NCBI GenBank assembly: GCA_039920285.1
Contig: JBDSDX010000001.1
Span: forward strand, 180,001 to 212,000
DNA: 32,000 bases
Direction of reading: 5' to 3'
From: Candidatus Saccharimonadota bacterium
Lineage (GTDB): Bacteria > Patescibacteriota > Saccharimonadia > Saccharimonadales > Saccharimonadaceae
Under the pieces are notes generated by a model. That model was not told the DNA's origin. It searched no databases and was given only the letters and a program-made list of their open reading frames with translations. The first letter of the stretch is position 1. The number at the start of each line of letters is the position of its first letter. A program made the position numbers and the translations under genes. Below are positions 3,031 through 17,930 of the stretch, in pieces.

Positions 3031-3052
3031 CTTTTTCTCCTACTACTTAAAA

Positions 3053-3146: not shown

Positions 3147-3220
3147 CTCTTATTTTACTATTAATGATTGTTTTCTGATACGGGTGTGATATAACTACAG
3201 GCTACAGCTTAAGTAGTTAC

Positions 3221-3229
3221 TACTATAGG
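3221..3229 (-). promoter_or_regulatory. island-specific TACTATAGG motif (reads CCTATAGTA on the minus strand and contains a TATAGT -10-like box), upstream of int
   Basis: The same 9-mer recurs at 4668-4676, and 8 of its 9 nt at 3815-3823. All three sit upstream of minus-strand transcription units of the island. Confidence 0.3.
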
Positions 3230-3298
3230 TAGCTATTCCCATAGAATGATATTTATATCAAACCTTTTGTCATTTGTCCCATTGTCTTACTTTAGTAG

Positions 3299-3610: not shown

Positions 3611-3750
3611 ACAGCTTTCCTTTTAAGGATGCGTAGAATACGAACTAAGTGATTAGCCTCAAGTCTTGATTGCTCTAGGTCAATTGAAATACCTAAGCAG
3701 GTTTTGTATAGCGTTTGATATTCTTTTATTTTTTCCTCTGACAACGTCAT
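3607..3750 (-). CDS. small hypothetical protein (47 aa, MTLSEEKIKEYQTLYKTCLGISIDLEQSRLEANHLVRILRILKRKAV), not in the ORF track
   Basis: I translated this from the reverse complement. SD AGAGGAAAA lies 5 nt before ATG 3750, and its TGA overlaps the next gene's ATG (4-nt ATGA overlap). Confidence 0.4.
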   Translation of the reverse strand: MTLSEEKIKEYQTLYKTCLGISIDLEQSRLEANHLVRILRILKRKAV

Positions 3751-3769
3751 ATAGTTTTCCTCTAATATG

Positions 3770-3783
3770 ACTGAGCGCTCAGT
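3770..3783. promoter_or_regulatory. perfect 14-bp palindrome ACTGAGCGCTCAGT, candidate operator in the leader of the 47-aa/103-aa operon
   Basis: The sequence is its own reverse complement. It is a GC-rich island in AT-rich intergenic DNA, between the TATAGT motif (3815-3823) and the start codon at 3750. Confidence 0.35.
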
Positions 3784-3814
3784 ACTTATTTAATATTTAG
3801 CATATGCATAAAGA

Positions 3815-3838
3815 AACTATAGGTCTATAAAACTATAG
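3815..3838 (-). promoter_or_regulatory. tandem AACTATAG(G) motifs (3815-3823 and 3831-3838), candidate promoter/operator
   Basis: AACTATAGGTCTATAAAACTATAG, a direct repeat with 16-nt period. The minus strand reads CCTATAGTT. Confidence 0.3.
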
Positions 3839-3845
3839 TGGTTTA

Positions 3846-4658
3846 CTATGACGGAATATTCTTTATCTGACTAAGGATGTCTGATAGAGTATCACGGTTC
3901 TTATTTTGAACATATTTACCATTTTTTGAATTATGTTTTACGAAGTCATCAAGTATGTGATTAATTTCTTCACCTTCAAGATAGAGCGGGGTTTTTAGTT
4001 CAATGATGTTGTCCTTGCATTGAAAGAATAGGTAGTTTCGTGCTTTCTTCTTAAACCCTGAGTTTCTTACGACACTTGATAATGAACCAATGGGTTGACC
4101 TGCACCTATTCCTTTACCTTTTATGTAGCCATCTTCATCACGTTCAACGACACGCTCAATAATGAGTTTTCTGAATACATCTATGGCTCCACGATTATTG
4201 AAACGCTTTAGTTCTAGTTGTTTCTTGTTAACCATTAAATAAAGTTTACGATCTTCAACATGGAGGTCGCATCGCAAATCGTTGTGACTAAACTCCTTTA
4301 TCCTGAGCTCAATAGAGCTGGCGAGGCTACGAATCCTATCATCATCTATCACTTGAATTCTCCACCGAGTATGAACACGCATTTTTGGTATCCCAATAAT
4401 AGGAGTTTTTACCCAGAGATAAAAGTCTTTATCACGAGATGGTATGATCTTTATATATTTCTTCGTCTGCAGGTATTGGAGTAAATTTGAAATATTATAC
4501 TCTTTTGTGCGACCAATCTTGAATCCGTCCGCGAATGGATAGAGATACATGCCTTCGGTTTTGTATCCCCATTCATCATGGGCTTCCAAGATTTTCTTCA
4601 AAACATACACAACATGTGTCGTCATCTCGAAAGGGTAGGTATTATATTGATATCCCAT
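3846..4658 (-). CDS. hypothetical protein (270 aa), no recognisable domain
   Basis: Long ORF with AT-rich codon usage typical of the island. A TATAGT box lies 10 nt upstream of the ATG. Confidence 0.6.
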   Translation of the reverse strand: MGYQYNTYPFEMTTHVVYVLKKILEAHDEWGYKTEGMYLYPFADGFKIGRTKEYNISNLLQYLQTKKYIKIIPSRDKDFYLWVKTPIIGIPKMRVHTRWRIQVIDDDRIRSLASSIELRIKEFSHNDLRCDLHVEDRKLYLMVNKKQLELKRFNNRGAIDVFRKLIIERVVERDEDGYIKGKGIGAGQPIGSLSSVVRNSGFKKKARNYLFFQCKDNIIELKTPLYLEGEEINHILDDFVKHNSKNGKYVQNKNRDTLSDILSQIKNIPS

Positions 4659-4667
4659 AACTATCTC

Positions 4668-4683
4668 TACTATAGGCTATAGG
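4668..4683 (-). promoter_or_regulatory. TACTATAGG-CTATAGG motif pair immediately upstream of the 270-aa gene
   Basis: TACTATAGGCTATAGG. The minus strand reads CCTATAGCCTATAGTA, with TATAGT 10 nt from ATG 4658. Confidence 0.3.
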
Positions 4684-4783
4684 GTAATTTTTTTTGCGCG
4701 CGCACTAAGTACAGAAATGAGAAGACCAAAAGGGAAGGTAGGGTGCAGTTAATTTCTAACTTCAAATAGCAGGGGGGTATAAT

Positions 4784-5000
4784 CTCTTGCTCGCATAGAG
4801 TATGAGCAAGTGCTGGAGGAATTAACAGAGGTGACTGTTTAAAAGATGTGATATGATTATAAAGTCTAAACCAGTTGAAGCGATACATTTCTATATGTGT
4901 CGAGTTTGTGTCTACAAATGGGCACCCACTCGACAAAACAGTTAGGGACGCAAATCTCTTCTGCTGGTTTAGACACCTAGAGCTGGGTGTCCTTTTATTT
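4784..5000 (+). ncRNA. candidate structured leader or small RNA ending in a terminator just upstream of the DUF805 gene
   Basis: A TATAAT box sits at 4778-4783. Helices are CTTGCTC/GAGCAAG (4786-4792 with 4804-4810) and a long-range 10-bp helix TCTAAACCAG/CTGGTTTAGA (4865-4874 with 4964-4973). The long-range helix encloses GTCGAGT/ACTCGAC (4899-4905 with 4928-4934). The terminator is GACACC-8 nt-GGTGTC + CTTTTATTT (4972-5000). Confidence 0.3.
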
Positions 5001-5042
5001 CTGGACTATCCTCTCTTATCTAATAAATCAAGGAGGTAACAA

Positions 5043-5471
5043 ATGAACATTCTAGGCATAAGGTCACCAAGGTTTAATCGATTAACTTATCTATTATCTA
5101 TATTCTTTGCGATGTTTGTTTTTGTGGGTCTGGGAGTTATTCTCAGTTCGTTATTTGATGTTGCAATGGGTGTTAAAACCGATAGTTTTGAACCTAACCC
5201 ATTCATCTTCTTGCCGTTCTTTCTGGGTTATTATCTGTATCTTATCATGGCTGTAGTAAAACGATTACATGATCTGGACATACATGGAGCATGGTCGATA
5301 GCTTTCGCGGTTGCGATATTTATTCCGATCGTGAACCTTATTACTGGTTTGTATCTTTTATTCACTGACGGTAACGCGGGTGATAATAAATACGGTAAGC
5401 GTCCTCAAGTTGTTCACGTAATGGGTGTTGTCATATGGAAAAAATCATTAGAGATTGGCCAAACAGTTTAG
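5043..5471 (+). CDS. DUF805-family inner-membrane protein
   Basis: Strong SD AAGGAGG (5030-5036). Four hydrophobic helices and the family-typical motif KRLHDLDIHGAW. Confidence 0.7.
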   Translation: MNILGIRSPRFNRLTYLLSIFFAMFVFVGLGVILSSLFDVAMGVKTDSFEPNPFIFLPFFLGYYLYLIMAVVKRLHDLDIHGAWSIAFAVAIFIPIVNLITGLYLLFTDGNAGDNKYGKRPQVVHVMGVVIWKKSLEIGQTV

Positions 5472-5659
5472 CGTAGACGGCTATGAGTGAAGATAGACTT
5501 GAGCTGCGCAGGAAACAAGATGCTCTATCGCTGGCTCAACTACTTTACGATATTTATGTTAAATAAGAGTAATCTATAAGCTGTGGTGCAAACTACTTAA
5601 CAGAGGTATAATGGTGACCAGAGTAGCGAAAGTTTGTAAACAGTTAGGTGTTTGAGGCG

Positions 5660-8600
5660 ATGAGTATAGAGAGCGACCGAGGATCAGAATGGCGCAGATG
5701 GGATTTGCACCTTCATACGAAGGACACTAATAAGAACGATCAGTTTAACGAGAGTGCTGATTTCGATGCGTATTGTGTCACGATGTTGAAAAAAGCCGTT
5801 GATAAGAATATCGCTGCTATTGGTATTACTGATTATTTCAGCATCGATAACTATAAAAGAGTCGTTGAATTTATCTCCAATATTGATAGTCGTACCGATT
5901 TCGATGCTGATCAAAAAAGATCAATAAAGAATATCCTAGTAGTACCGAATGTAGAGCTTCGGATGCTTCCAGTTACAGCACGCGGTAGCTTGGTTAATAT
6001 TCATTGTATTTTTAATCCTGCTATTGTGTCCAAGCTTGATAACAAATTTTTCGCATCCATTGAGTGTTCGGATGGCAGCACGACTCATAAAATGAATCTT
6101 CAGGGTCTGATAGATTTTGGTAAATCTTTTGATTCCGGACTAGATGAAAAAGCGGCATATAAAAAAGGTGTCGATAATTTCCACGTAGATCAAGCAAAGC
6201 TTCAAGAGCTATTAACTGATGAAGTGTTTGCTGAAAATACTATTGTAGTTGTAAGCAACTCTACTAACGACGGAGCGTCAGGTTTTCAAAAGCATTACGA
6301 TTCTTTTGAAGATATAGATCCCGGCAGTCTTGAAGGTGTGAGGAAGGCTATTTACTCTATCTCGCAAGCCATTTTCTCAAGTAATGAAGGCGATAGAAAA
6401 TATTTTCTCGGCTTAAGCAAAGATGATGAAGACGTTGTGAAGAAGAAGTGTGGGTCTTTAAAACCCTGTATTCATGGCAGTGACGCACACACAGAATCAA
6501 AACTTTTTGAACCAGATGAAGACAGATTTTGCTGGATAAAAGCGGACACTACGTTTGAAGGATTAAAACAAATAATATATGAACCAGCAGACAGGGTTTT
6601 CATTGGTTTGGAACCACCTGTTCTTGATCGGGTGAGGACTAATAAAACCAAATATATTGATATGTTAAATATTAATCACTTACCCGGTTATAGCGGAGCT
6701 CAGGGTGTTTGGTTTAAGGACGTCAGTATTAATTTAAATAAAGAACTTATAGCCATTATCGGCAATAAGGGCAGTGGAAAAAGCGCGCTATCAGACATAC
6801 TTGGAGTGCTTGGAAATACACATAACGCAGGCGCTAACCATGAGAACCTCTCCTTTCTAAGAGGTGGAAAAAAGTTAAAGTTTAGAAAAAAGGGCTACGC
6901 GGAGAATTTTGAAGCGGAGTTGGTATGGGAAGACGGTAGCGGTGCTGACACAAAAATTCCCTTAGATCATAACGTCGATCCTGACGACACGGAAAAGGTA
7001 AAATACCTACCGCAGAATTACTTTGAGAACTTGACCAATGATCTCGAAGGCGAAGGTTTTGATAAAACCTTGAAGAGTGTCATCTTTTTACATATACCCG
7101 AAGAGCAAAGATTAGGCGCACACAGTTTTGAAGAGCTAGAGGATAAAAAAGCAAAAAGCATTGAAGCAGATCTTGTTGTACTGAGAGACGAAGCTCATTC
7201 TATATCGGAAGAGACTATTAAGCTAGAAGCCAAGAAACATCCCAGCAGAAAGAAGCAGATTGAAAACGCAATTCTTGAAAAAAAGAACGAGCTTACCGAA
7301 CACGAAAAGATTAAGCCAGTAGAAATTCCTGATCCTGCAAAACAAGGAGATGAGGAAGCGGCTGAAGCAAAGAGCGAGAAATACGACCAACTAGAAAAAT
7401 TAAATGCTACGCAGGCTGGTGTACTTGGAAAAATTGCTCAGAAACGAACAGAACTTAATGGACTGACGCAAGATCAGGAAGAGCTTACTCAGCTCAAGAA
7501 TGCATTGTCCAGAGTTTCTAATCAGGCGGAAACATTTAAAATTGAAAATGCCACAGTCTTTGAGAAACACGGTCTTATTATCGATGAAATTATCGAAATT
7601 AAGGTTAAGAATGATCCTATTCTTTTAAAGATCCAGGAGAAGCAAGAATCAGTAAATAGCGCTAAGGCTGCACTACGTACAAAATCTGCCATTGATACCG
7701 ATCCAGAGCTAATTGGTAAGCCTGCAGAGCTCAAGGCAGCGTACGCAGCAAGTCTTCAAGTTCAAGAAGAAGATATTCGTACTCAGATTACTGAAATAAA
7801 GAAAGATCTATCACGGCCTGAAAAAGAATTCCAAGAGTATAAAGAAAAGCTCAAAAAATGGGGTGATAGGAAGCGAGAAATCGAAGGTTCAAAGAATCAG
7901 ATCAATAGTCTTAAGTTCTACGAAGAAGAGCTTAGATATATAACAAAAGAGCTTACGTCAACTCTTAACACGATGCGTGGAGAGCGGTTGAAAAAAACTA
8001 TCTCAATCTTTAAAAAGCAAAAAGAGATCGTAGAGTTATACCGTATTTTCAAGGAGTCGATAGATAAAGAAATTTCTAAAGACGAAGAGTTTTCCAAGAA
8101 ATTTAAGATGATCATAGATGTGAACTTTAAACTAGATCCTCTGTTTATGCGTAGCTTCTTGCAGTTTATTAATAAATCAAAAAGGGGCACCTTCTACGGT
8201 TCAAACGAGAATCACGTCTCAGAACTTTTCAGTGAGATGGATTTGTTAGATGAGAGTCATATTTCACAAATTCTTAACACAACTATTGAATGGCTTGAAT
8301 TGAATCAAAAGGAATCTAACGAAGACTTGAGGCCACAAGAAATATCAGACCAGATTGATAAGTTGCAGGAGTTCTACGATTTCTTATTCTATCTTGAATA
8401 CCTGAAGCCGGTTTATGAGTTGAAGCTCGATGGGAAAATACTTGATGAACTCTCGCCAGGTGAGAAAGGTACGTTATTGCTTGTTTTCTATCTAATGATC
8501 GATAAAGAGGACACTCCACTGATCATTGACCAACCAGAGGATAATCTAGATAACAAGAGTGTATTCCAAGTCTTGACACATTTTATTAAGACGGCTAAAA

Positions 8601-8824
8601 AACGCAGACAAATAATTATTGTTACTCACAACCCGAACCTTGCGGTTGGTGCAGATGCTGAGCAGATTATTTACGTTGAGCTCGACAAGAAAAGTAATAA
8701 GAATACTTTTACATTTGAAGTTGGTGCAATCGAAAACCCAAGAATCAATAAACAGCTGGTTGAGATACTTGAAGGAACTATGCCTGCATTTAACAGGAGA
8801 AAGCTTAGGTATAACAAATCATGA
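5660..8824 (+). CDS. PHP-domain phosphoesterase fused to a Rad50/SMC-like ABC ATPase with a long coiled-coil insertion
   Basis: PHP motifs are WDLHLHT (HxH codons at 5708-5716), GITDY, NVELR and HGSDAH (6473-6490). The ABC head has Walker A GNKGSGKS (6761-6784) and Q-loop YLPQNYF. About 400 aa of heptad-rich, K/E-rich coiled coil without Cys follows. Then come signature LSPGEKG (8450-8470), Walker B/D-loop LIIDQPEDNLD (8519-8551) and H-loop VTHNPN. ATG 5660 with GAGG (5654-5657) is preferred over the track's GTG 5648. Confidence 0.8.
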   Translation: MSIESDRGSEWRRWDLHLHTKDTNKNDQFNESADFDAYCVTMLKKAVDKNIAAIGITDYFSIDNYKRVVEFISNIDSRTDFDADQKRSIKNILVVPNVELRMLPVTARGSLVNIHCIFNPAIVSKLDNKFFASIECSDGSTTHKMNLQGLIDFGKSFDSGLDEKAAYKKGVDNFHVDQAKLQELLTDEVFAENTIVVVSNSTNDGASGFQKHYDSFEDIDPGSLEGVRKAIYSISQAIFSSNEGDRKYFLGLSKDDEDVVKKKCGSLKPCIHGSDAHTESKLFEPDEDRFCWIKADTTFEGLKQIIYEPADRVFIGLEPPVLDRVRTNKTKYIDMLNINHLPGYSGAQGVWFKDVSINLNKELIAIIGNKGSGKSALSDILGVLGNTHNAGANHENLSFLRGGKKLKFRKKGYAENFEAELVWEDGSGADTKIPLDHNVDPDDTEKVKYLPQNYFENLTNDLEGEGFDKTLKSVIFLHIPEEQRLGAHSFEELEDKKAKSIEADLVVLRDEAHSISEETIKLEAKKHPSRKKQIENAILEKKNELTEHEKIKPVEIPDPAKQGDEEAAEAKSEKYDQLEKLNATQAGVLGKIAQKRTELNGLTQDQEELTQLKNALSRVSNQAETFKIENATVFEKHGLIIDEIIEIKVKNDPILLKIQEKQESVNSAKAALRTKSAIDTDPELIGKPAELKAAYAASLQVQEEDIRTQITEIKKDLSRPEKEFQEYKEKLKKWGDRKREIEGSKNQINSLKFYEEELRYITKELTSTLNTMRGERLKKTISIFKKQKEIVELYRIFKESIDKEISKDEEFSKKFKMIIDVNFKLDPLFMRSFLQFINKSKRGTFYGSNENHVSELFSEMDLLDESHISQILNTTIEWLELNQKESNEDLRPQEISDQIDKLQEFYDFLFYLEYLKPVYELKLDGKILDELSPGEKGTLLLVFYLMIDKEDTPLIIDQPEDNLDNKSVFQVLTHFIKTAKKRRQIIIVTHNPNLAVGADAEQIIYVELDKKSNKNTFTFEVGAIENPRINKQLVEILEGTMPAFNRRKLRYNKS

Positions 8825-10002
8825 ATGTAAGCACGATTAAATGTACACACTGCGGAAAGGATATTGAACTTTCCGAAGCTCTTACTAAAGATATTGAAAA
8901 GACAGTGCTCGATGCTGAGCATAAAAAACATCTAGCTGAAATGGAAGAATTTCAAAAAGTATCTGACGAAAAAACACGCAAGTTAGTCGAAGAAGAAAAA
9001 TTAAAAGCTCAAGCGGATGCCACGTCGAAACTTGAACACAGATTAAAGCAGATGAGTGAAGAGTCCGAAGCGGATAAGCTAGAGGTGAAAGAAATGCGCG
9101 GACAGTTATCAACGCTTATGCAGGAGCTTCGTGAATCAAAGAAAAATGCTGCAAATGCAGAGCTTGAAATGCAGAAAAAATTGGCCGAAGAAGAACAGAA
9201 GATTCGCGAGGAAGCTCAAAAAGAGGCTGGTGAAAACCAACGCCTTAAATTAGCAGAAAAAGATAAACAAATTGAAGCTGCAAAGAAACAAGTTGAAGAA
9301 ATGCAGAGAAAGCTGAACCAGGGTTCTCAACAGATGCAAGGTGAAATCCTGGAACTTGATCTTGAGGACGCACTCGCAGCTGAATTCAAAGATGATGACA
9401 TCAATCCTGTAGAAAAGGGCATAAAAGGTGCAGATATAAAACAAACGGTACGAAGCCCACGTGGTACGGATTGCGGGGTGATTCTTTGGGAAATTAAACG
9501 TACCAAAGCATGGACTGAGGGCTGGGTTCAGAAACTAAAAGATGATTTAAGAGATACAAAAGCGAACATACCCGTCATTATTACAGAAGTTATGCCACGT
9601 GATATTAAATCCGATATTCATTTACACAATGGTGTTTGGGTTGTTAAGCCCGGCTCTGCACTCATTCTTGCTGGCTTGTTAAGGAAAGGTTTATTGGACG
9701 TAGGGCGTGAGAAAGCTATCGCTAAGCATCGAGATACGAGTGCGGATGCTCTTTACGGTTTTGTTACGAGCCATGAGTTCTCTCAGCAAATTGAAGCAAT
9801 GGTTGAAGTCTATACTGAAATGATAACTGATCTTACTAAAGAGAAAGTTGCGTTTGACAGAATTTGGGCAAAACGTGAAAGCCAAGCCAAGAAGTTACTT
9901 GGAAGTACAGCTAATATTATTGGAAGTATGCAAGGTCAGTTGGGCGCAGGTGCTTCACTTCGCATTAAAGGTCTTGAGCTTTTGGATTCTGGTGAGGATT
10001 AA
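8821..10002 (+). CDS. DUF2130-family protein: N-terminal CxxC, coiled coil, C-terminal RmuC-like PD-(D/E)xK nuclease fold
   Basis: The start overlaps the ATPase stop (ATGA at 8821-8824). N-terminus is IKCTHCGKDIELSEAL, followed by a K/E-rich coiled coil. The nuclease motif is GADIKQTV...GVILWEIKRTKAW (D codon 9433-9435, E-x-K 9490-9498). A conserved tail reads FVTSHEFSQQIEAMVEVY...WAKRESQ. Confidence 0.75.
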   Translation: MNVSTIKCTHCGKDIELSEALTKDIEKTVLDAEHKKHLAEMEEFQKVSDEKTRKLVEEEKLKAQADATSKLEHRLKQMSEESEADKLEVKEMRGQLSTLMQELRESKKNAANAELEMQKKLAEEEQKIREEAQKEAGENQRLKLAEKDKQIEAAKKQVEEMQRKLNQGSQQMQGEILELDLEDALAAEFKDDDINPVEKGIKGADIKQTVRSPRGTDCGVILWEIKRTKAWTEGWVQKLKDDLRDTKANIPVIITEVMPRDIKSDIHLHNGVWVVKPGSALILAGLLRKGLLDVGREKAIAKHRDTSADALYGFVTSHEFSQQIEAMVEVYTEMITDLTKEKVAFDRIWAKRESQAKKLLGSTANIIGSMQGQLGAGASLRIKGLELLDSGED

Positions 10003-10582
10003 GTTTCGGTAAGTCCTCTAAGGTATTGAGTTCATCAACAACTGCATTGAATATAGTATTAATGTCATCTGCACACTGATTCATATCGTTCTGCCACATT
10101 TTGATTAAATCCTTGCGCTTTGCCATGTTAGCGAGTTGCATAGTAGTTGTATATGTTATTGGTCTTGGTAAAATGTCATTTCCAAACTCAGGCACACCTA
10201 TTCTTTCATAATTTGACCCGTGAGCTGCACGGTGCCGCTTATGCATTTTTTCTTTATGGTACTTACTAGATAATGTATCTTCGTATTCTCTTAATTTTGT
10301 TGTAACAGTATATCCAGGCGGAAGTGTGTGGTATTTTCTAACATTTTTGACAAGGTCTATTATAAGATCTTCGTAAAACCGGCTATTGAGTATCAGAAAT
10401 GTTTCCATCATTGACTGCAACCAGTCAATATCTTGTTTTTTACGGTTTAACTCTCTGGAAAGCTTTTTCATCATCCGTACTATGTAGCGTATGTCACGAA
10501 TATAATAAATAGCATCATGACCATAAGATAAGCGTAAAGTCTGGATCGCGGGGCTCGTTTTCTTAGATATTGAGATTCGCAT
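9965..10582 (-). CDS. hypothetical alpha-helical protein (205 aa) with an RxxxxH (HEPN-like) motif
   Basis: The ORF is convergent with DUF2130, and their 3' ends overlap by 38 nt. The RHRAAH motif is encoded at 10220-10237. No other recognisable domain. Confidence 0.45.
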   Translation of the reverse strand: MRISISKKTSPAIQTLRLSYGHDAIYYIRDIRYIVRMMKKLSRELNRKKQDIDWLQSMMETFLILNSRFYEDLIIDLVKNVRKYHTLPPGYTVTTKLREYEDTLSSKYHKEKMHKRHRAAHGSNYERIGVPEFGNDILPRPITYTTTMQLANMAKRKDLIKMWQNDMNQCADDINTIFNAVVDELNTLEDLPKLNPHQNPKAQDL

Positions 10583-10627
10583 AGATATTCTCAGTATAGT
10601 ACTTTTGACTTACTTCTCATTTAATAA

Positions 10628-10659
10628 GGTTCTGACTTCATCTAGGACGCGGAGCCAAG
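10628..10659 (+). repeat. degenerate tRNA-3'-end-like repeat R1 (GGTTCTGACTTCATCTAGGACGCGGAGCCAAG)
   Basis: It shares GGTTC...CGGAGCCAAG with tRNA-Asn 1395-1421, and the last 10 nt are identical. A terminator hairpin follows directly. Confidence 0.5.
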
Positions 10660-10700
10660 AAAAAAGCCGCAGTCCTTTAGGACTTAGGCTTTTTTCTTTG
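10655..10700 (+). terminator. long terminator hairpin following R1
   Basis: CAAGAAAAAAGCC..AGTCC-tuta-GGACT..GGCTTTTTTCTT(T)G, with an inner 5-bp and an outer ~13-bp helix and a U-rich 3' arm. Confidence 0.5.
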
Positions 10701-10712
10701 TTGTGTTGCTAG

Positions 10713-10761
10713 CCCGACCAGCAACCGCAGCGCGGTAGCGATGCATGGTTGCGGTTCGATA
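10713..10761 (+). repeat. 49-nt hairpin repeat, copy 1 (degenerate)
   Basis: CCCGACCAGCAACCGCAGCGCGGTAGCGATGCATGGTTGCGGTTCGATA is identical to 14714-14762 at 44 of 49 positions. Confidence 0.7.
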
Positions 10762-10818
10762 GCGAGGAGCAGGACAGGAAAGTTTACTTTCCTGAACGTG
10801 ACGATGGTATATCTGGAT

Positions 10819-10838
10819 AGTCCAGCCGTCGGAGCCAA
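10819..10838 (+). repeat. attR-like direct repeat R2, exact copy of the tRNA-Asn 3' terminal 20 nt
   Basis: AGTCCAGCCGTCGGAGCCAA matches 1401-1420 at 20 of 20 positions. Confidence 0.75.
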
Positions 10839-10850
10839 ATTTGAATCACT

Positions 10851-10873
10851 AGCCGATGCGTCGGCTATTTTTT
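10851..10873 (+). terminator. rho-independent terminator following R2
   Basis: AGCCGA-tgcg-TCGGCT followed by ATTTTTT. Confidence 0.6.
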
Positions 10874-10967
10874 GTATTGACTGATATGGTTTCTTTCATT
10901 TTACGGTTCGAAAACCCTGAGAACAGTGTTATAGTATGGCGAGAACAACAGGGTGGCAGGAAACATT

Positions 10968-12260
10968 ATGGCTTTTAGAGACCCCCTTAGAAATTACTCG
11001 ACAATTGATGGTATTAATTACCTCGATCCAAAGATTGAAAACTTTCTTGAACTTGATGCACCAGAGAGCTTCAAGAATTCAATCAATGTGCTACTACCAA
11101 TTCGCAACGCCCTACGAGTCGCAAAGACGATTGGTAGGATCGGCGAGATCCCGACCACTGAATATTATATGCAGACTATTCAGTGGCTAAATAAACAGAT
11201 GGCGCTTGGAGCATGGATAGGCGTCCCCCAGCTTACTAGCTACAATGACATAACGGAAGATGTAGCTTCAAACTTTAGTGGGCATGCTGCTAATGTTCTT
11301 TCTAATTTGGTTAACCAATCGCTTTTTCAACAGATCCAGTTGATGCAGGGTGTCTTGGAAAATACTATAGTACAAGGAATCATTGACGACATCGAGGCCC
11401 CCATTGAGGAGAATTTCAAACAGACATTGAGAGATGAACAATCAGCTGTTACGGTATCCCTCGACGCTACACAGGAGGAGAAAGCGAGACAGCTGACTGC
11501 GCTGTTTAATGAACAGATGCAGCAGGTCAGAACTGCTGGAAGTGACGCTACATCCTCATTTGAGCAAGCAAGAGCACTCGCTAGTTGGAGTGAATTTTAC
11601 GCAGGACGTGTACATCAGTATGAGCTCGCTTTGTACGGTAAAGTATGGCCAGTTAATGCTACTGCAAGAAAGCTTTCGACATATAGAAAGTATAGAAAAT
11701 CCTTGTCAATGAAAGAACGAGCTAGAACTATCCTTGCCACAATTATTGCGGCACTTCGTTGCTTACGCCAAGGTTGGGCAATTGTATATTCCAAGATTAG
11801 CTCGTATTCAGGACGTAGGTTTCTTTGGTTTGTACTCATTGCGCTGAGCATAATTCTGATCATGGCCGTAAATCTGCTCTCCATATATGGAACGAAAACT
11901 TTCCTTGGAATAAACGTAGCTCCCTTGAAAGCCACTCATAAAGACACGCTCTTATTTGCTAAGGCCGCCACATATCTTGCTGTACTTTTTATTCCTACAA
12001 TCGGATACTCATTTGCGAATAAGAATTACCGGATATACAGCAACTTATTAGAACAGTACCGTCATAGAGAGATTGTTGCCAAGACAATTCAGGGCATACT
12101 AGCTCGGCCTAGAGGTGATGACGATGATGAGGCTGTTAGAAAAGAGCTCGCTAATGTAGCCTCCGTAGCACTATTCGAACAAAAGACTGTCGGACACCTG
12201 TCGAAGCAGGAAGCAAACTCTGCTTCAATCATTGATATACTGCGGACTTTTAGATCTTAA
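10968..12260 (+). CDS. hypothetical membrane protein (~430 aa): soluble helical N-terminal half, two or three TM helices, helical C-terminal tail
   Basis: ATG 10968 with AGGAAA 4 nt upstream, and an extended -10 TGTTATAGT at 10927-10935. TM segments are FLWFVLIALSIILIMAVNLLSIY and AATYLAVLFIPTIGYSF. No domain recognised. Confidence 0.6.
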   Translation: MAFRDPLRNYSTIDGINYLDPKIENFLELDAPESFKNSINVLLPIRNALRVAKTIGRIGEIPTTEYYMQTIQWLNKQMALGAWIGVPQLTSYNDITEDVASNFSGHAANVLSNLVNQSLFQQIQLMQGVLENTIVQGIIDDIEAPIEENFKQTLRDEQSAVTVSLDATQEEKARQLTALFNEQMQQVRTAGSDATSSFEQARALASWSEFYAGRVHQYELALYGKVWPVNATARKLSTYRKYRKSLSMKERARTILATIIAALRCLRQGWAIVYSKISSYSGRRFLWFVLIALSIILIMAVNLLSIYGTKTFLGINVAPLKATHKDTLLFAKAATYLAVLFIPTIGYSFANKNYRIYSNLLEQYRHREIVAKTIQGILARPRGDDDDEAVRKELANVASVALFEQKTVGHLSKQEANSASIIDILRTFRS

Positions 12261-12305
12261 TAGGAACTGAGAGTTCCCACATGCTTACAATTTGATTTTT
12301 AATTC

Positions 12306-12337
12306 GGTTCCAATTTATCCCAGTGTGGTGAGCCAAG
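12306..12337 (+). repeat. degenerate tRNA-3'-end-like repeat R3 (GGTTCCAATTTATCCCAGTGTGGTGAGCCAAG)
   Basis: Same 32-nt format as R1 and R5, with the shared frame GGTT...CCAG...GAGCCAAG. An imperfect A/T-rich hairpin follows at about 12338-12386. Confidence 0.45.
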
Positions 12338-12381
12338 CTTAAGCATTATGAAAGACTTCTTAGGAAGCTTTTTTCTTATGC

Positions 12382-12409
12382 TTGCACCAAGACCCTAAAC
12401 GTTTATAAT
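12382..12409 (+). promoter_or_regulatory. promoter TTGCAC-16-TATAAT for the 124-aa gene
   Basis: TTGCAC at 12382-12387 and TATAAT at 12404-12409. SD AAGGAG lies at 12421-12426 before ATG 12432. Confidence 0.5.
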
Positions 12410-12431
12410 TCTTACAAACTAAGGAGCGTAC

Positions 12432-12806
12432 ATGGCAGGCCTTCCGCAGAATATTGAAACTGCTCTCACAGAAGTATACGGACCAGTTGAAGCTGCGTTT
12501 ATAATTACGCAAATACCCAAGGGTGGAGCGCCAGAGGATATAAAGGAGCAATGGGTCGGAGTATCACTGCCAGTGCGAGCTGCACATCTTGGCCAGACTG
12601 CTCTTGCGCCTACAAGAAACTTTGACTATTTAACGCAACAAATAACTGAAAATGACGACTCTGTAGCTATCACAGGAATTGATGCAGTACATGCACTTGC
12701 CGAAGCTGGAAAAGAGTCTGCTGCTAGGTTCTGGGATTCAATGCAGCTTGCTAAATTTGTTTTTCGAGCACATGAGGGTACGCTACAACCTCTGCAATCT
12801 GATTAG
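12432..12806 (+). CDS. hypothetical soluble protein (124 aa)
   Basis: ORF with a good promoter and SD. No recognisable domain. Confidence 0.6.
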   Translation: MAGLPQNIETALTEVYGPVEAAFIITQIPKGGAPEDIKEQWVGVSLPVRAAHLGQTALAPTRNFDYLTQQITENDDSVAITGIDAVHALAEAGKESAARFWDSMQLAKFVFRAHEGTLQPLQSD

Positions 12807-12809
12807 TTG

Positions 12810-12855
12810 GGTTAGAGTCATAGTTGCGAAATGTGACCAGTAGGGGGGAGCCAAA
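12810..12855 (+). repeat. degenerate tRNA-3'-end-like repeat R4 (GGTTAGAGTCA...CCAGTAGGGGGGAGCCAAA)
   Basis: GGTTAGAGTC resembles the T-arm GGTTCGAGTC at 9 of 10 positions. An insertion follows, then CCAG-N-GGAGCCAAA. Confidence 0.4.
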
Positions 12856-12866
12856 GTTAGAACCAA

Positions 12867-12896
12867 AAATAACAGAGATGAAAGTCTCTGTTATTT
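12867..12896. terminator. bidirectional terminator between the 124-aa gene/R4 and the MBL operon
   Basis: AAATAACAGAGA-tgaaag-TCTCTGTTATTT, a perfect 12-bp stem with T-runs on both strands. Confidence 0.65.
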
Positions 12897-12929
12897 GTTG
12901 TAGGTACCGATATAATTGAAATTTGATTG

Positions 12930-13748
12930 TTAAGCTTGCTTATACTTTTCAGCGATTTGCTTGGCTTGCCATTCATGAATACCGGCAACCCATTCCCATC
13001 CTTCTTTTGCGGAGGAGTTAATTCTTGAATCGTCAGGAGTGACACCATCTCGTAACGCTTCTACATAGGCGCGGTCAAGTTCAATACGTTCTTTAATATG
13101 TTCGCCTTTTGCAACCGAGCCGTGTCCAGGGACAATAGCAGTGATCTTATCAGCTATTGCACTAAATAGGTTTAATGCAGCTAGGTAATCACTTATCGGA
13201 TCTTTGGCATCGAACTTAAGCATAGGCATAAAAACATCTGAAAGCATGTCACCAGCAATCAGTACGCCTTTATCTACTAAGAATAGAGCTGCGTGACCTT
13301 GAGCATGTGCTGCATGCTCAATAACTTTTATTACTGGACCATTCCAAGTAAGCTCAGTTGCATCAGAGGACAATGCCGTTAAAAGACCGAACAAGTCTAA
13401 AGGAACTTCTGTTGCTATTTCTTCAGGTAACGCAGCAGTTGCCAGCTCTTTCCAGTCAGTTTTTGCTCTAAAGTCTTGCATAAAGGCTGCTCCTTTGGCA
13501 GTAGCGTATCGAGGAGCATTACCAAGTTCATTATGCCAAAGTACATGATCCCAATCTGGGTGAGTCGAAAAGCCAGCAGTAACAGTTTGACCAAGTTCTT
13601 TTATGTCTTTTACTAGGTCAGTCATCTCATTCTCCGTCAGTCCAGGATCCGTAACCAATACTCCGTCATTGCCCTGTACAACAGTACAGTTATTTTGCAT
13701 CAGTTCGCTTTGATGAACCCATACTCCATCAGTAATTTTTTCTAACAC
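12930..13748 (-). CDS. MBL-fold metallo-hydrolase
   Basis: STHPDWDHVLW (an HxHxDH-type variant), HAAHAQGHAALF, and GDMLSD...VPGHG. Confidence 0.7.
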   Translation of the reverse strand: MLEKITDGVWVHQSELMQNNCTVVQGNDGVLVTDPGLTENEMTDLVKDIKELGQTVTAGFSTHPDWDHVLWHNELGNAPRYATAKGAAFMQDFRAKTDWKELATAALPEEIATEVPLDLFGLLTALSSDATELTWNGPVIKVIEHAAHAQGHAALFLVDKGVLIAGDMLSDVFMPMLKFDAKDPISDYLAALNLFSAIADKITAIVPGHGSVAKGEHIKERIELDRAYVEALRDGVTPDDSRINSSAKEGWEWVAGIHEWQAKQIAEKYKQA

Positions 13749-14191
13749 TACTTATTCTCCTTTATTAAGAAACTACTTAGTTTGTCTAATGTGGCATTCC
13801 AGCCGTTCATCATCTTCTGATACTTTTGGCGGAGGGATTCATCTGGTAATTCTCCCCATATAGTAAGCTCGGTCTTCTCACCAATGGCCTTGAGCTCAAC
13901 ATGGCACATTCCACCAATACCCTCAGGATGCTGTGGAAATGAGTAATCTAATATGTCGAAGACTATCTCGTGAGGTTGGTCGAGACTAATGTACGTCCAT
14001 GTATATTCGCCAGAACCTTTTGAAGATTTGAACCGCACTTTGCCTTGGGGCCTTGCGTCAAATTCTAATATGTCCAAGTCATTCGTTTGCGAAGAGAACC
14101 ACTGTTTGAGTTCGTCTGCAACTGTCCATGCTCGCCAGATACGTTCGGGCGATGCGTCAAATGTGCGTTTTATACTAACTCTACTTACCAT
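13748..14191 (-). CDS. SRPBCC/AHSA1-like domain protein
   Basis: RTFDASPERIWRAWTVADELKQWF is typical of Aha1/START-like SRPBCC proteins. These are commonly paired with ArsR regulators. The gene overlaps arsR by 11 nt. Confidence 0.65.
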   Translation of the reverse strand: MVSRVSIKRTFDASPERIWRAWTVADELKQWFSSQTNDLDILEFDARPQGKVRFKSSKGSGEYTWTYISLDQPHEIVFDILDYSFPQHPEGIGGMCHVELKAIGEKTELTIWGELPDESLRQKYQKMMNGWNATLDKLSSFLIKENK

Positions 14192-14519
14192 CGCTAATTT
14201 CCTCCTTTAAATATAACGCCAATGAATTCACTTTGTCCGTCCAGAACTGTTCAAACCACTCTATATACTCATGTGCATCTATTAATGCACGTGGGGTTAG
14301 GCTAACAATTTGCTCCTTTCCTCTTTTTTTCTTGATTATAAGATCAGCGTTTTCTAGAACTTTGAGGTGCTTCGAGATAGCACCAAAGGTAAGTTGATAG
14401 TTTCGAGCGATTTCGCCTATCGAAAGTTCGGTAGCGCCAATTCGTCGTAGAATATCTCTTCGAGTAGGATCTGCGAGTGACATAAATGTCTTATCTAAGA
14501 TAAGTGAACGTTCTACCAT
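14181..14519 (-). CDS. ArsR/SmtB-family transcriptional regulator
   Basis: LADPTRRDILRRI...ELSIGEIARNYQLTFGAISKHLKVLENADLI is a wHTH of the ArsR family. Confidence 0.8.
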   Translation of the reverse strand: MVERSLILDKTFMSLADPTRRDILRRIGATELSIGEIARNYQLTFGAISKHLKVLENADLIIKKKRGKEQIVSLTPRALIDAHEYIEWFEQFWTDKVNSLALYLKEEISDGK

Positions 14520-14527
14520 ATAGTAGA

Positions 14528-14556
14528 ATGATAGTACTATTAGTTTATGATTGCAA
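14528..14556 (-). promoter_or_regulatory. promoter TTGCAA-17-TATCAT of the arsR operon, with the -10 only 8 nt from the ATG (leaderless geometry)
   Basis: The minus strand reads TTGCAA tcataaactaatagtac TATCAT tctactat ATG. Confidence 0.45.
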
Positions 14557-14635
14557 ATAAGTAAATGAAATCTTTTATATTAATACTACCTAAGTGCTCA
14601 TATTATGGTTGATACACTAAATCCTGCTTTATAAC

Positions 14636-14667
14636 GGTTATAACTTCCTCTATTGTGGTGAGCCAAA
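14636..14667 (+). repeat. degenerate tRNA-3'-end-like repeat R5 (GGTTATAACTTCCTCTATTGTGGTGAGCCAAA)
   Basis: It aligns without gaps to R3 and shares the 13-mer TGTGGTGAGCCAA. Its 3' part forms the 5' arm of the following hairpin. Confidence 0.45.
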
Positions 14668-14703
14668 TAAAGAAGACCCGTCAGGGCCTTTTTTATTTGG
14701 CTC
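14660..14703 (+). terminator. 20-bp hairpin/terminator (GAGCCAAATAAAGAAGACCC-gtca-GGGCCTTTTTTATTTGGCTC)
   Basis: Hand pairing gives 18 Watson-Crick pairs, 1 G:U and 1 mismatch. The inner part resembles the terminator at 1477-1500 (AGAAGACCC...GGG..CTTTTT). Confidence 0.55.
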
Positions 14704-14830: not shown

Positions 14831-15106
14831 ATGATTACAGATATCAAAAAGCGTTCGCTACACCGTGCCAAGATCATTGAGGGTCAGATGCGGGGCATCC
14901 AGAAGATGATCGAAAATGGAGATTATTGCATGGACATTATCACTCAGAGTCTTGCGGTACAAAGATCTCTCGGTTCACTTAATAAACTTGTTCTTGAGAA
15001 CCATCTACGGACTCATGTCAAAGATATGTTTGCTGCTGGCGAAACGGATAAAGCGGTTGAGGAATTACTTTCGGTCTACGAACTTGCCAAAATAAGAAGT
15101 AAATAA
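14831..15106 (+). CDS. csoR: CsoR/RcnR-family metal-sensing repressor (x-C-H-H ligand pattern)
   Basis: The pattern LHRAKIIEGQMRGIQKMIENGDYCMDIITQSLAVQRSL...ENHLRTHV is family-typical. Cys33, His58 and His62 have the same 25/4 spacing as the C-H-C ligands of characterised CsoR. Confidence 0.8.
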   Translation: MITDIKKRSLHRAKIIEGQMRGIQKMIENGDYCMDIITQSLAVQRSLGSLNKLVLENHLRTHVKDMFAAGETDKAVEELLSVYELAKIRSK

Positions 15107-15116
15107 AGGGGATGAT

Positions 15117-15911
15117 ATGAAATTAACGCCAAATAAAAAAATAGTAGTGTATGTGGTGAGTGTAATTCTTGGTCTATTGATTCTGGCAGGTGGATGGTAC
15201 GGGTATGTATATCTTTCGACGCCTGCACACATAAGAAAACCTACGTATCAGCACTATCATTTCCGTACACAAATTTCAGTTGATGATAAAGCAGTAGATT
15301 TCTCAAAAGACGAATTCCAAAAAGAGACTGGAACATCTATAGCATGTAGTGCAGCAGTGGGCAGCGCGCCAATTGATTTTCACGACAAGATGGATCAGTT
15401 AACACATGTTCACTGGAACGGTATGACTGGCGGCGAATTCTTGAAGGACTTCGGTTGGAATTATATTGGTGGAAACGATGAAGTATTAGGACAACGTTAT
15501 GATGAGGGCTTAAACCCAAGTCCAGTAAACATATACGGCAAGTTGCTCCCTACGGTATCTGAAAATGCTAATTTCTATGTATACGCAGGCGATAAAGAAC
15601 AGTATCAAAAAAAGAATTGGAATGATTTTCTGAATCAAGATCTTGAATTGTTTTTTGGCAAAAAAAGTAATGTCGGACACGGCGAAGATGTTTCGTTCAA
15701 CGTTTTAAATTGGCTGTTTCCAAAGGCGTATGCTCATGGTGAAGTTATGGATGAACACGCTTCAACCAAATCTGAAGAAGAACTAACGCGCATTAACAAC
15801 GTCGTAGGTAATGTCGTCATCTTCGCACAGAAGGATGAGCCAACCGATGCTCAGATAAAAACCAAGTTTAACAATCTGGTACCACTACATGAAAGTACTT
15901 GTGGAGATTAA
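15117..15911 (+). CDS. membrane-anchored extracytoplasmic protein of unknown function inside the copper operon
   Basis: N-terminal TM helix VVYVVSVILGLLILAGGWYGYVYL. His/Cys-containing motifs are HVHWNGMTGGEF, AYAHGEVMDEH and C-terminal HESTCGD. It sits tightly packed between csoR and copB. Confidence 0.6.
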   Translation: MKLTPNKKIVVYVVSVILGLLILAGGWYGYVYLSTPAHIRKPTYQHYHFRTQISVDDKAVDFSKDEFQKETGTSIACSAAVGSAPIDFHDKMDQLTHVHWNGMTGGEFLKDFGWNYIGGNDEVLGQRYDEGLNPSPVNIYGKLLPTVSENANFYVYAGDKEQYQKKNWNDFLNQDLELFFGKKSNVGHGEDVSFNVLNWLFPKAYAHGEVMDEHASTKSEEELTRINNVVGNVVIFAQKDEPTDAQIKTKFNNLVPLHESTCGD

Positions 15912-15914
15912 TTA

Positions 15915-17930
15915 ATGAATTATTCAAAACATAGTAACGATAATCACGACCACTCCAATCATGACAAACATGCTGGCCATAACCCAAACATGTTCAAAAA
16001 AAAGTTCTGGTTGAGCCTGCTACTTACCATACCGGTACTACTATATTCTCAGACTATTCAGGAATTGCTGCATTTCACTATGCCAAGTTTCACGGGTAGT
16101 AGTTTTATTCCTCCAGTCTTTGGAATTATTATATTTGTTTACGGTGGTTTAGTATTCCTTCGTGGCGCCAAAGCAGAGCTTGCTGCAAAACAACCTGGCA
16201 TGATGACTCTTATATCTATGGCAATTACAGTCGCGTTGGTTTACAGCATCGCCGTCACATTTGGGCTTGAAGGAATGAGTTTTTGGTGGGAATTGGCCAC
16301 CCTTATCACGATCATGTTGCTTGGTCACTGGCTGGAGATGGCATCAATAATGAATGCTCAAGGTGCTCTTAAGGAACTTGCTAAGTTGCTCCCGGACGGA
16401 GCCGAGCTCTTAACCTCAAACGGTACAAAAACCGTTTCTGTCGCTGAATTGAAAGTAGGTGATAAGGTTCTCGTTCGACCAGGAGCAAACATACCCGTCG
16501 ATGGGGAAGTTATAAAAGGTGAATCGAGCGTCAACGAGTCAATGCTTACGGGTGAATCCAAGCCGGTAAAGAAACTAGTAAAGTCGTTGCTGATCGGCGG
16601 AACAGTTAATGGGAGCGGCTCGCTGACGATGCAGGTCACAAAAATCGGTGACAACACTGCGCTAGCTGGAATTATGAAGTTAGTCGCCGATGCCCAGAAC
16701 AGCAAGTCTAAGACACAGGTACTTGCTGACCGGGCAGCTTATTATTTAACGTTTTTGGCACTCGGAGCCGCACTTATTACTTTGCTCGCGTGGACTTTCT
16801 TCAGCGATCAATCTGCCTCATTTATTATTCAGAGAGTTGTTACGGTGCTCATCATAGCTTGTCCACACGCTCTCGGTTTGGCTATTCCGCTGGTTACCGC
16901 TATATCTACTTCACTTGCTGCAAAAAACGGGTTACTCATACGTGAGCGTATGGCACTGGAAGCTGCTCGCAATATAGATGTCGTATTGTTCGACAAAACA
17001 GGAACACTGACAAAAGGCGAACAGGGTGTCGTGGATATCGTAGCCACAGGCAATAAAAATAGCCTACTGTCGTTAGCTGCTTCTGTCGAAAACGAATCTG
17101 AACATCCTATCGCAAAAGCAATCGTTCGATATGCAAAAGAAAAAAAGTTGAGTGTCCTTGAAGCGAAACATTTTTCGGCTATGTCTGGTCGGGGTGCAAC
17201 AGCACTCGTGAATGGCAAAGCTGTACATATCGGAGGTCCAAAACTACTTGAGGAATTAGGATCAGAACTTCCTACTGCTATTCAAAAAGCCGCTCATTCA
17301 GCCCAAAATGAAGGTAAGACTACCGTATATGTCATTCAAAATAAGACCGTACTTGGCGCGATTATGTTAGCTGATATTATTCGACCTGAATCGAAAGAGG
17401 CTGTTAATTTGCTTCTAGCGAGAGGTATTCGAGTCTCAATGTTAACTGGTGATGCTGAGGGTGTCGCTGCATGGGTAGCAAAAGAGCTTGGGATAAAAGA
17501 ATTCTTTGCTGAGGTTTTACCCGAGAATAAAGCCTCAGTAGTCAAAAGGCTGCAAGCTGATGGTAGTAAAGTAGCGATGGTTGGCGATGGGGTCAATGAT
17601 GCTCCTGCACTCACACAGGCCAATGTGGGGATTGCTATTGGTGCAGGAACTGATGTTGCCATTGAGTCGGCAGGTATTGTACTGGCTAGTAGTGACCCGC
17701 GCGGTGTCGCAAGCATCGTGACGCTTTCGAAAGCGACGTATAGGAAGATGGTTCAGAACTTAGTCTGGGCAACTGGCTACAATGCTCTCGCTATTCCATT
17801 AGCGGCAGGCGTAACGGCTGGGTTTGGTTTTGTACTATCACCCGCTATAGGAGCAGTGCTTATGTCATTATCGACAATCGTTGTAGCTGTTAATGCCCAG
17901 TTCCTGCGTAAATTAAAACTTAAGGTTTGA
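15915..17930 (+). CDS. copB: P1B-type copper-transporting ATPase, CopB-like (His-rich N-terminus, CPH motif)
   Basis: N-terminus [20 protein letters not shown]. Motifs are TGES, transmembrane CPH ([13 protein letters not shown]), DKTGTLT and [10 protein letters not shown]. No HMA/CxxC domain is present. Confidence 0.85.

Follow-up and report, generated by a model that had tools for sequence, protein, structure and literature searches.

The tRNA-Asn locus of a Candidatus Saccharimonadota genome and its repeats, for the most part probable displaced tails of large serine recombinase genes

The tRNA-Asn gene, its recombinase neighbour and the repeat copies

The stretch of DNA considered here, which we call the window, covers 32,000 nucleotides of a Candidatus Saccharimonadota bacterium (assembly GCA_039920285.1, contig JBDSDX010000001.1, positions 180,001 to 212,000 of the forward strand). 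It carries a tRNA-Asn(gtt) gene at 1345..1419 of the plus strand (ARAGORN; Rfam RF00005, 65 bits), the only match in the window at the Rfam gathering threshold. On its right this gene is adjoined, in antisense and with an overlap, by the gene of a 550-aa large serine recombinase (LSR; 1378..3030, minus strand) with the Pfam domains Resolvase (PF00239), Recombinase (PF07508) and Zn_ribbon_recom (PF13408), the combination that marks LSRs when it stands in a single protein of about 450-700 aa. The last 14 codons of the recombinase (WLRRLDSNQQPRS*, the asterisk marking the stop) are the antisense of tRNA positions 1378-1419, the open reading frame (ORF) ending in ...KSTWLRRLDSNQQPRS*. Further to the right lie five short repeat copies, R1 to R5, that have sequence in common with the tRNA 3' end. 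We consider it likely, judging from sequence comparison, that this tRNA gene is a hotspot used by LSR-family elements whose own attachment site (attP) lies inside the recombinase gene, and that R1, R3 and R5 are the native tails of such genes, located at element borders.

A sequence-only reading of the window had described these copies as tRNA 3' ends, R2 exact and the others degenerate, each in an intergenic gap and each followed by a hairpin. Its coordinates and sequences are correct (R1, 10628-10659; R2, 10819-10838; R3, 12306-12337; R4, 12810-12855; R5, 14636-14667), every copy does lie between ORFs, and hairpin and folding checks find a hairpin after each of them in the window. The heptamer GAGCCAA occurs 11 times in the window against 4.08 expected, a count reached in none of 100 shuffles; its chance occurrence within a coding sequence lies at 15837-15843, not at 15835-15841 as first given. 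The longer pattern GGTT-N15-40-GAGCCAA has five matches against 0.26 expected, exclusively on the plus strand (1395, 10628, 12306, 12810 and 14636), the leading G being variable in related sites (AGTT in the loci L145 and L146; such L numbers denote the loci used for comparison).

The copies are not all of one kind. R1, R3 and R5 make up one 39-nt direct-repeat family (D1), and a 30-nt degenerate pattern built from them matches those three alone in the window, with 0 matches expected even when 3 mismatches are allowed. What they share with the tRNA is the GAGCCA core alone, plus a GTT motif that stands 5 nt further out: the tRNA has a GTT-to-GAGCCA spacing of 15 nt, and the R sites of both subfamilies described below have one of 20 nt. 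GAGCCA is also the sole segment common to the tRNA and all R copies. In the tRNA the core, GAGCCA(A) at 1414..1420 of the plus strand, comprises the discriminator and CCA; it is antisense to recombinase codons for Leu and Trp and is the presumed crossover region. R2, on the other hand, is an exact 20-nt copy of tRNA positions 1401-1420.

The LSR gene belongs to an integrative element of ~9.2 kb (1420..10657) that also carries small ORFs, a DUF805 gene, a 1058-aa SMC/AAA_21-like gene, a DUF2130 gene and a 205-aa ORF. The integrated gene keeps its 550-aa ORF and all three domains, which are likewise present in the LSRs of L060, L095 and L125, and has the tRNA-encoded tail in addition. Its own native tail sits at R1, 9.2 kb from the gene body: the minus strand of 10610..10659 encodes an intact C-terminal tail, WLRVLDEVRTLLNEK*, in what would be the P arm of attR. 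The terminator hairpin of the tRNA (1474..1496, plus strand) is embedded in the LSR coding region, where its antisense codes for KKTPVGSS. The closest relatives of this LSR, in L145 (87% identity) and L146 (84%), stand on a backbone in common with the window (Wzy_C, LexA, tRNA-Asn) and repeat its layout: the LSR stands at the core of tRNA-Asn, and a tail like R1 follows 9.0 and 9.8 kb to the right, cargo and right flank being different from those of the window; the left 3.5 kb of the element is 82% identical to L145, and the cargo beyond it differs. Because both relatives repeat this layout, R1 can be taken as the right end of the resident LSR element.

The repeat motif as a probable recombinase C-terminus

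Read on the minus strand, in the frame set by TGG-CTC (GAG-CCA in antisense), the R motif yields a conserved peptide, W-L-x-x-[ILV]-[DE]-E-V-[RI]-T, which is found in R1, in R5 and at 152 or more metagenomic sites. The latter come from a scan of metagenome contigs with a strict pattern that returned at least 120 stretches and at least 152 sites, per-genome counts being lower bounds, and they fall into two types. Type A, GGTTATAACTTCCTCTATCGTGGTGAGCCA, is the type of R5 and encodes W-L-[TP]-[TVI]-I-E-E-V-I-T-x-I-K-Q-D-[LF] (WLTTIEEVITVIKQDL); type B, GGTTCTAACTTCGTCCACTACGGGGAGCCA, encodes W-L-P-V-V-D-E-V-R-T-R-I-Y-x-L-S-R-E-x-x-I-P (WLPVVDEVRTRIYGLSREFxIP). Differences among type-A sites number 121, 113 and 200 at codon positions 1, 2 and 3, and the nucleotide changes are largely synonymous or conservative. 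Within the window, R5 carries an intact type-A tail (WLTTIEEVITVIKQDLVYQP, coded at 14603-14665 of the minus strand); R3 translates to WLTTLG, which ends at an in-frame stop and looks like a decayed tail. The minus-strand translation of R4 lacks the tail motif, its left arm being unclassified, and that of R2 equals the tRNA antisense for six codons, which makes it tRNA-type. Coding on the plus strand of the sites was rejected on inspection of the site sequences, many copies having in-frame stops just upstream.

The peptide has its counterpart in complete recombinases. The family abounds in Patescibacteria, and more than 1581 LSR homologues, labelled by their sources as Patescibacteria and others, were found; among the best 120 of them, about 67 have tRNA-antisense C-termini (..W..DSNP..; ..RWLRGWDSNPRP..) and 11 have native tails of the form W..x[VI][EQ][ED]V[RG]T..I[HY]IP, homologous to the R peptide. 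A hidden Markov model (HMM) of the native LSR C-termini matches 135 of 139 junction translations. On the right side of the type-B core, 11-12 codons (KSEAFRPRLVCW) also agree with the LSR motif KTEALASVRARW, so that every junction in the arrays is a piece of an LSR gene with the size of an attP. Two loci, L125 and L101, have an R-type site that is continuous with a full LSR ORF. Moreover, R sites are near-identical between genomes whose tRNA-Asn acceptor stems differ. On the strength of these comparisons R1, R3 and R5 are best described as displaced 3'-terminal coding segments of LSR genes rather than as the degenerate tRNA 3' ends for which they had been taken.

The same arrangement of tRNA-Asn and tails occurs widely in environmental bacteria. 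ARAGORN finds tRNA-Asn(gtt) in 18 of the matched loci, in each case lying 0.4-5 kb upstream of the sites and on their strand; the other tRNAs in the scanned loci (Leu twice, Gln once) all lie downstream of sites. The 30-mer of the R site is unchanged in 23-48 independent copies, and sites are conserved across two lineages. Type-B sites form arrays of up to 9 sites in 27 kb, with uniform junctions of ~12 LSR codons, core and ~28-codon tail. Several cassette families (F16, F91, F0 and F13, and F21 in three contexts) have different neighbours in different type-B arrays. In L101 a cassette lies between tRNA-Asn and the LSR gene, and its tail completes that gene. A scan of viral contigs gave no match and hence no evidence for a phage origin.

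Two further observations concern the tRNA genes at which such recombinases are found. Many LSRs of this family have the C-terminus ..W..[DE]SNP.., which is the T-arm GGTTCGAATCC read in antisense, and in L140 a related LSR gene (1870-3657) overlaps the 3' end of a tRNA-Phe gene (1923-1998), likewise antiparallel to it; across the family, the targets seem to be tRNA genes that encode their CCA, the Trp codon being placed on the CCA. At the LSR core of L095 (~2300-2502) and L146 (reverse strand, ~2600-2678) stand tRNA-Asn-like 3' halves, from anticodon loop to CCA, in which ARAGORN calls no tRNA and which have unrelated, structured-looking sequence just upstream; they may be intron-containing or disrupted tRNA-Asn genes.

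Proposed integration at tRNA-Asn and competing explanations

Comparison with relatives obtained through the 264-aa protein encoded to the right of the repeats, all of them Saccharimonadales or Saccharimonadia metagenome-assembled genomes, locates the breakpoints of this region. In L008 the csoR gene follows tRNA-Asn after 275 bp, and the sequence between 1420 and ~14700 of the window is absent. In L010 the distance between tRNA-Asn and csoR is 4.5 kb and is filled by different modules of one gene each (DUF4386, Fic, baeRF), between which stand tRNA-like or R-like copies. The first of these separators is the R5 30-mer, set in a 59-nt stretch 88% identical to the window, though the tRNA-Asn of L010 itself ends in CCCGGGAGCCA. 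After three different left arms L008 and L010 continue with the identical downstream sequence GACCAAGCAGAG..., which argues that sequence is exchanged at GAGCCA. Lastly, another genome, represented by L044 from the metagenome scan, holds ArsR and SRPBCC genes with an R5-type site, 80.8% identical to window positions 13704-14673, and the homology ends 8 nt past the core. Together these three loci support the earlier proposal of serial insertion at tRNA-Asn, with the copies as att-type junctions of the inserted elements. The companion proposal of one accessory locus from 1.4 to 14.7 kb is borne out by L008 as regards its accessory nature and is probably too narrow as regards its right limit: the operon of csoR, the 264-aa gene and the Cu-ATPase gene is itself bounded by tRNA-Asn and a pseudo-tRNA copy in L008 (8889-15127), so the accessory region probably runs past 14.7 kb.

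The mechanism we propose places attP within the 3' end of the LSR gene, where it would span the Trp-Leu codons, and attB at the 3' end of tRNA-Asn. We place attP there because the LSR ends in a tRNA-encoded tail, because its own tail lies at R1 and because two relatives have the same geometry. The shared core would be the Trp-Leu codons TGG-CTC, antisense of the GAG-CCA end of the tRNA, the gene running antiparallel to the tRNA, and crossover would take place within GAGCCA. Integration would then split the LSR gene: the body would stay by the tRNA, which as the target would contribute the left half of attB and now form the left part of attL, and would gain the tRNA-encoded tail (WLRRLDSNQQPRS*), while the native tail of ~15-30 codons would end up at the far border of the element. 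In this scheme R1 would be the displaced tail belonging to the resident LSR element, and the intact R5 and the decayed R3 would be orphan tails at the right ends of older cassettes, now without a recombinase, that newer arrivals moved outward; R2 closes a small conserved non-coding unit on its right, and R4 is an unclassified or decayed junction. Every arriving element would bring its own terminator immediately past the core (within the 3' coding region in the case of the LSR element), which would explain the hairpin after each copy. In the circular form R1 would be joined to the LSR body, with a predicted attP junction of ...GGACGCGGAGCCA joined to AGTTGATTTCAACAAG; loss of the LSR element alone is predicted to leave a vacated site in which the tRNA, ...CGTCGGAGCCA, is joined to AGAAAAAAGCCGCAG; and the LSR at the source of type B is expected to have a 3' end matching KSEAFRPRLVCWLPVVDEVRT.

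The difference in spacing noted above, 15 nt in the tRNA and 20 nt in the R sites, matches what is known of serine integrases, whose attB has its distal motif 5 bp nearer the centre than attP does (PMC3783163). The likeness to the LI model of that work does not extend to the imperfect dyad symmetry around a 2-bp crossover that att sites of this kind have, which was not demonstrable in the reconstructed attP (best 12-15 of 36, with inconsistent centres, over three sites), and this is the first of several points that weigh against our interpretation. No circular or excised junction was observed, and L143, an 8-kb contig with a native-tail LSR, has no terminal overlap. Canonical LSRs do not recombine attP with attL, owing to attL auto-inhibition (PMC3783163), and repeated insertion at an occupied tRNA would therefore need an extra step, be it prior loss, action in trans or homologous recombination. 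Within the window, the tail of R3 is interrupted by its stop, R4 is without the tail signature, and R2 is tRNA-type and not tail-type in sequence. In the metagenome data, no recombinase was seen in or beside the type-B arrays (~60 kb examined), and the strict search pattern partly pre-selects conserved positions.

How the recombinase-less modules arrived bears directly on the strongest of the competing explanations. The arrays might be built by loss of the recombinase from full elements, by insertion of cassettes in trans, or by homologous recombination at the ~100-nt junctions. The second of these routes would make the modules non-autonomous cassettes with a minimal attP, moved singly by an LSR acting in trans, much as in integrons, and not remnants of full elements. 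We regard this as a serious possibility, if one we would lean away from. It would account for the length and uniform junctions of the type-B arrays, for the cassette families found in differing neighbourhoods, for the L101 cassette between tRNA-Asn and the LSR gene, and for the fact that the modules of the window and of L010 each hold one gene or one operon and no recombinase. Against this, the type-B arrays have no visible recombinase, homologous recombination at ~100-nt junctions could shuffle cassettes equally well, and insertion into attL is not a canonical LSR reaction. For cassette-level exchange as such there is some evidence in its favour, namely the shuffled type-B families and the L101 cassette. 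A bolder and somewhat doubtful extension would see the locus as an integron-like platform for gene capture, in which cassettes with a minimal intragenic attP (~12 LSR codons, the Trp-Leu/CCA core and a 20-30-codon tail) are inserted, excised and shuffled singly, the LSR exchanging a tRNA-encoded for a native tail, or the reverse, with each insertion. If this were true, the tail swap could switch LSR activity or directionality without a separate directionality factor.

Integrons themselves consist of the IntI tyrosine recombinase, an attI site and cassette arrays whose attC sites form hairpins with R''/L''-L'/R' boxes. The arrays described here resemble them in behaviour alone: they are one-stranded in orientation, with small, promoter-poor cassettes of one to three genes, a separating site of ~100 nt and a fixed anchor, and cassettes are reordered between arrays with their borders at the sites. 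However, no IntI-type gene was seen beside tRNA-Asn in the window or in five type-B loci, attC hairpin architecture is absent, a tRNA gene serves as the anchor, and the separating site is a piece of serine recombinase coding sequence.

A tyrosine recombinase encoded elsewhere, as in tycheposons or in integrative and conjugative elements (ICE) with their cis-mobilizable relatives (CIME), could instead drive the accretion, the LSR being one passenger among others. We think this improbable. Tandem accretion is indeed well documented for tyrosine recombinases, and the R2-type and pseudo-tRNA-type junctions have long identity to the tRNA, as classical att repeats do; yet LSR genes are the sole recombinases seen at the cores, and no Phage_integrase appears among the top 25 families per set for 189 locus ORFs of at least 230 aa, which is weak evidence. 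In streptococci, CIME/ICE accretion places att-flanked, recombinase-less elements beside autonomous ones, and in the myxophage Mx8 attP lies within int and integration alters the integrase C-terminus. Both systems use tyrosine recombinases, unlike the LSR here, and neither is known to yield multi-cassette arrays at tRNA-Asn.

Even less probable is the original explanation of R1, R3, R4 and R5 as decayed old copies of the tRNA-Asn 3' end, that is, as classical att direct repeats. It draws on the GGTT and GAGCCAA shared with the tRNA, on the exact 20-nt copy at R2, on tRNA-like copies that have the tRNA's own spacing and bound modules in L008 and L010, and on R4, which can be read as T-arm and acceptor strand with an insertion. 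The R sites are nevertheless 5 nt longer than the tRNA segment and stay constant while acceptor stems vary (that of L010 being CCCGGGAGCCA); they show coding-type variation, homology to the LSR C-terminus and conservation across two lineages, and decay would not keep a 30-mer in so many independent copies. For R1 and R5 this reading is largely refuted. R2, identical to the tRNA end, forms the conserved right end of a 180-nt non-coding unit.

That the motif might be a structured RNA (a tRNA-like 3' element or small RNA) co-transcribed with the upstream gene is hardly credible, for all its tRNA-like GCCA end and the 7-bp hairpin into which R1 folds: RNAalifold on 35 sites gives -1.27 kcal/mol with no compensatory pair and thus no conserved structure, which points to a DNA or coding feature, the sites have no Rfam match, and around the motif the R3 and R5 regions show no better folding than shuffled sequence. 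A generic terminator-associated intergenic repeat, spread genome-wide in the manner of repetitive extragenic palindromes or miniature inverted-repeat transposable elements, has scarcely any chance either, since the motif, although intergenic and followed by a hairpin in every copy, is not frequent at unrelated sites as such a repeat would be: all 18 loci that hold a tRNA-Asn have it upstream of the sites and on their strand, contigs of 1.2 Mb, 216 kb, 135 kb and 80 kb have one strict match each as a lower bound, and the 32-kb window has none elsewhere.

Returning to an intragenic attP as the favoured interpretation, its nearest known counterpart is found in the SSV-type (type I, or 'suicidal') integrases of archaeal viruses and plasmids. 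In these, attP lies inside the ORF, the 3' part of a tRNA gene is the target, and integration parts the gene between the two element ends, though hybrid genes can re-form in tandem insertions (PMC7253208). The likeness lies in the LSR body at the tRNA and the native tail at R1, known here from integrated forms alone, in the antiparallel orientation to the tRNA target, in the repetition of this layout in L145 and L146, and in the contiguous LSR-plus-tail genes of L125 and L101. SSV-type integrases, however, belong to the tyrosine recombinases, are described as confined to archaea and have their gene inactivated by the split (PMC7253208), whereas we are dealing with a bacterial serine recombinase of which the last 15-30 codons alone are displaced, the body keeping its catalytic and DNA-binding domains.

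As to the accretion of modules, the closest parallel is with the tycheposons of Prochlorococcus, where tandem elements at one tRNA are separated by att repeats and newer elements push older ones outward; their islands include degraded remnants and cargo-only segments, and a minority carry large serine recombinases (bioRxiv 10.1101/2020.12.28.424599). Tandem elements at a tRNA 3' end with att repeats are likewise found in the window, in L010 and in the metagenome arrays. The separators of tycheposons are partial tRNA copies, and tRNA-Asn is not among the seven targets listed (bioRxiv 10.1101/2020.12.28.424599); here, the main separators are LSR-gene fragments, only R2 and the pseudo-tRNA copies of L008 and L010 being tRNA-like. 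Tycheposons also have replication modules, and in the island of the window no hallmark replication gene (primase, helicase, polymerase) was seen.

Both tRNA-anchored tandem islands and intragenic attP sites are thus of known kinds. Our literature search, of incomplete coverage, found no description of this LSR/tRNA-Asn system, which is weak evidence of novelty. Several implications would follow. Patescibacteria integrase genes that seem odd at their C-terminus are explained if their ends are antisense tRNA and the tRNA's CCA supplies their conserved Trp codon, and an orphan recombinase tail could serve as a sequence-level marker of island borders in small, hard-to-annotate genomes. Our interpretation would extend intragenic attP from the archaeal tyrosine integrases, to which it was reported to be restricted (PMC7253208), to bacterial serine recombinases. 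The recombinase-less, shuffled arrays suggest a second route, besides integrons, for stockpiling small accessory and defence genes at one site. Finally, work that aims to understand or engineer directionality may find interest in a compact serine integrase that changes its tail when it integrates.

Cargo modules and neighbouring genes

To the right of R1 the island is divided into small units, the gene-bearing modules of the window and of L010 each holding one gene or one operon without a recombinase; family-wide, a terminator-like hairpin follows 74-75% of sites, as against 2-7% in shuffles. The first unit is the 180-nt non-coding one (10658..10838, plus strand), in which the core is followed by a terminator (10660-10700), a long hairpin named D4 (10713-10761), a second hairpin (CAGGAAAGTTTACTTTCCTG, 10775-10794) and R2. 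It is conserved whole in L028 and L042, including its GTCCAGCCGTCGGAGCCA end, and in part in L087 and L106, and the structure of the D4 hairpin is maintained across genomes with different apical sequences. The unit may represent a small structured RNA or else a regulatory element that goes with one type of cassette.

Module A (10839..12337, plus strand) consists of a terminator (10850-10867), a gene for a 430-aa protein with two transmembrane segments (10968-12260) and R3. Homologues of the 430-aa protein occur amid defence genes in L137 and L140-L142: in L137 these are SLFN/AlbA_2, DNA methylases and GmrSD, and in L140 a HinfI-type restriction-modification system and a reverse transcriptase, inside an LSR element. 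Such company suggests that the gene is an uncharacterised defence gene. None of these contexts (L137-L142) holds R sites or tRNA-Asn, and this cargo is hence not tied to the tRNA-Asn site. Module B (12338..12855, plus strand) comprises a hairpin (~12338-12386), a 124-aa gene (12432-12806) and R4; the left arm of R4 has relatives in no locus examined, and its right flank belongs to a family found after other sites and after the tRNA-like copy of L008. Module C (12856..14667) begins with a bidirectional terminator (12867-12896), carries an MBL/SRPBCC/ArsR operon on the minus strand (12930-14519) and ends in R5.

Beyond R5, the segment 14660..14762 of the plus strand holds a terminator (14660-14703) and a second copy of the D4 hairpin (14714-14762). 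By eye this terminator resembles the one inside the LSR 3' end, and the segment may be what is left of the 3' end or P' arm of an LSR. The csoR, 264-aa and Cu-ATPase operon follows (14831..17930, plus strand), in relatives itself a module between tRNA-Asn and a tRNA-like copy. In L010 (8593-8904) a 195-bp 3' fragment of the ATPase gene and a pseudo-tRNA copy precede a second left end of the cop operon, which indicates that cop modules turn over at the tRNA-Asn site.

Within the resident LSR element, the cargo at 5648-10002 consists of the 1058-aa SMC/AAA_21-like ATPase followed by the DUF2130 protein, and L145 (2036-4981, locus coordinates) has in their place a 981-aa PHP/SMC/AAA_21 protein and a KAP NTPase; the two look like exchangeable candidate defence pairs. 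On the left, the backbone beside tRNA-Asn encodes a 146-aa protein with a LexA DNA-binding domain (467-907) and a 95-aa ORF (999-1286), both also present in L145, L146, L059, L091 and L101. The Logan assembly of SRR26386597 interrupts the locus within tRNA-Asn, L002 ending at window position 1389 and L001 starting at 9148, and has the LSR on a separate 4-kb contig (P0031, 4047 bp), a pattern that would result from population heterogeneity at the integration site. Among the type-B arrays, the cassettes of L024 include MNT/HEPN and Fic genes, and just past the last strict site of this array (10479-11873, reverse orientation) lies a 464-aa ORF for a reverse transcriptase of the group II intron type.

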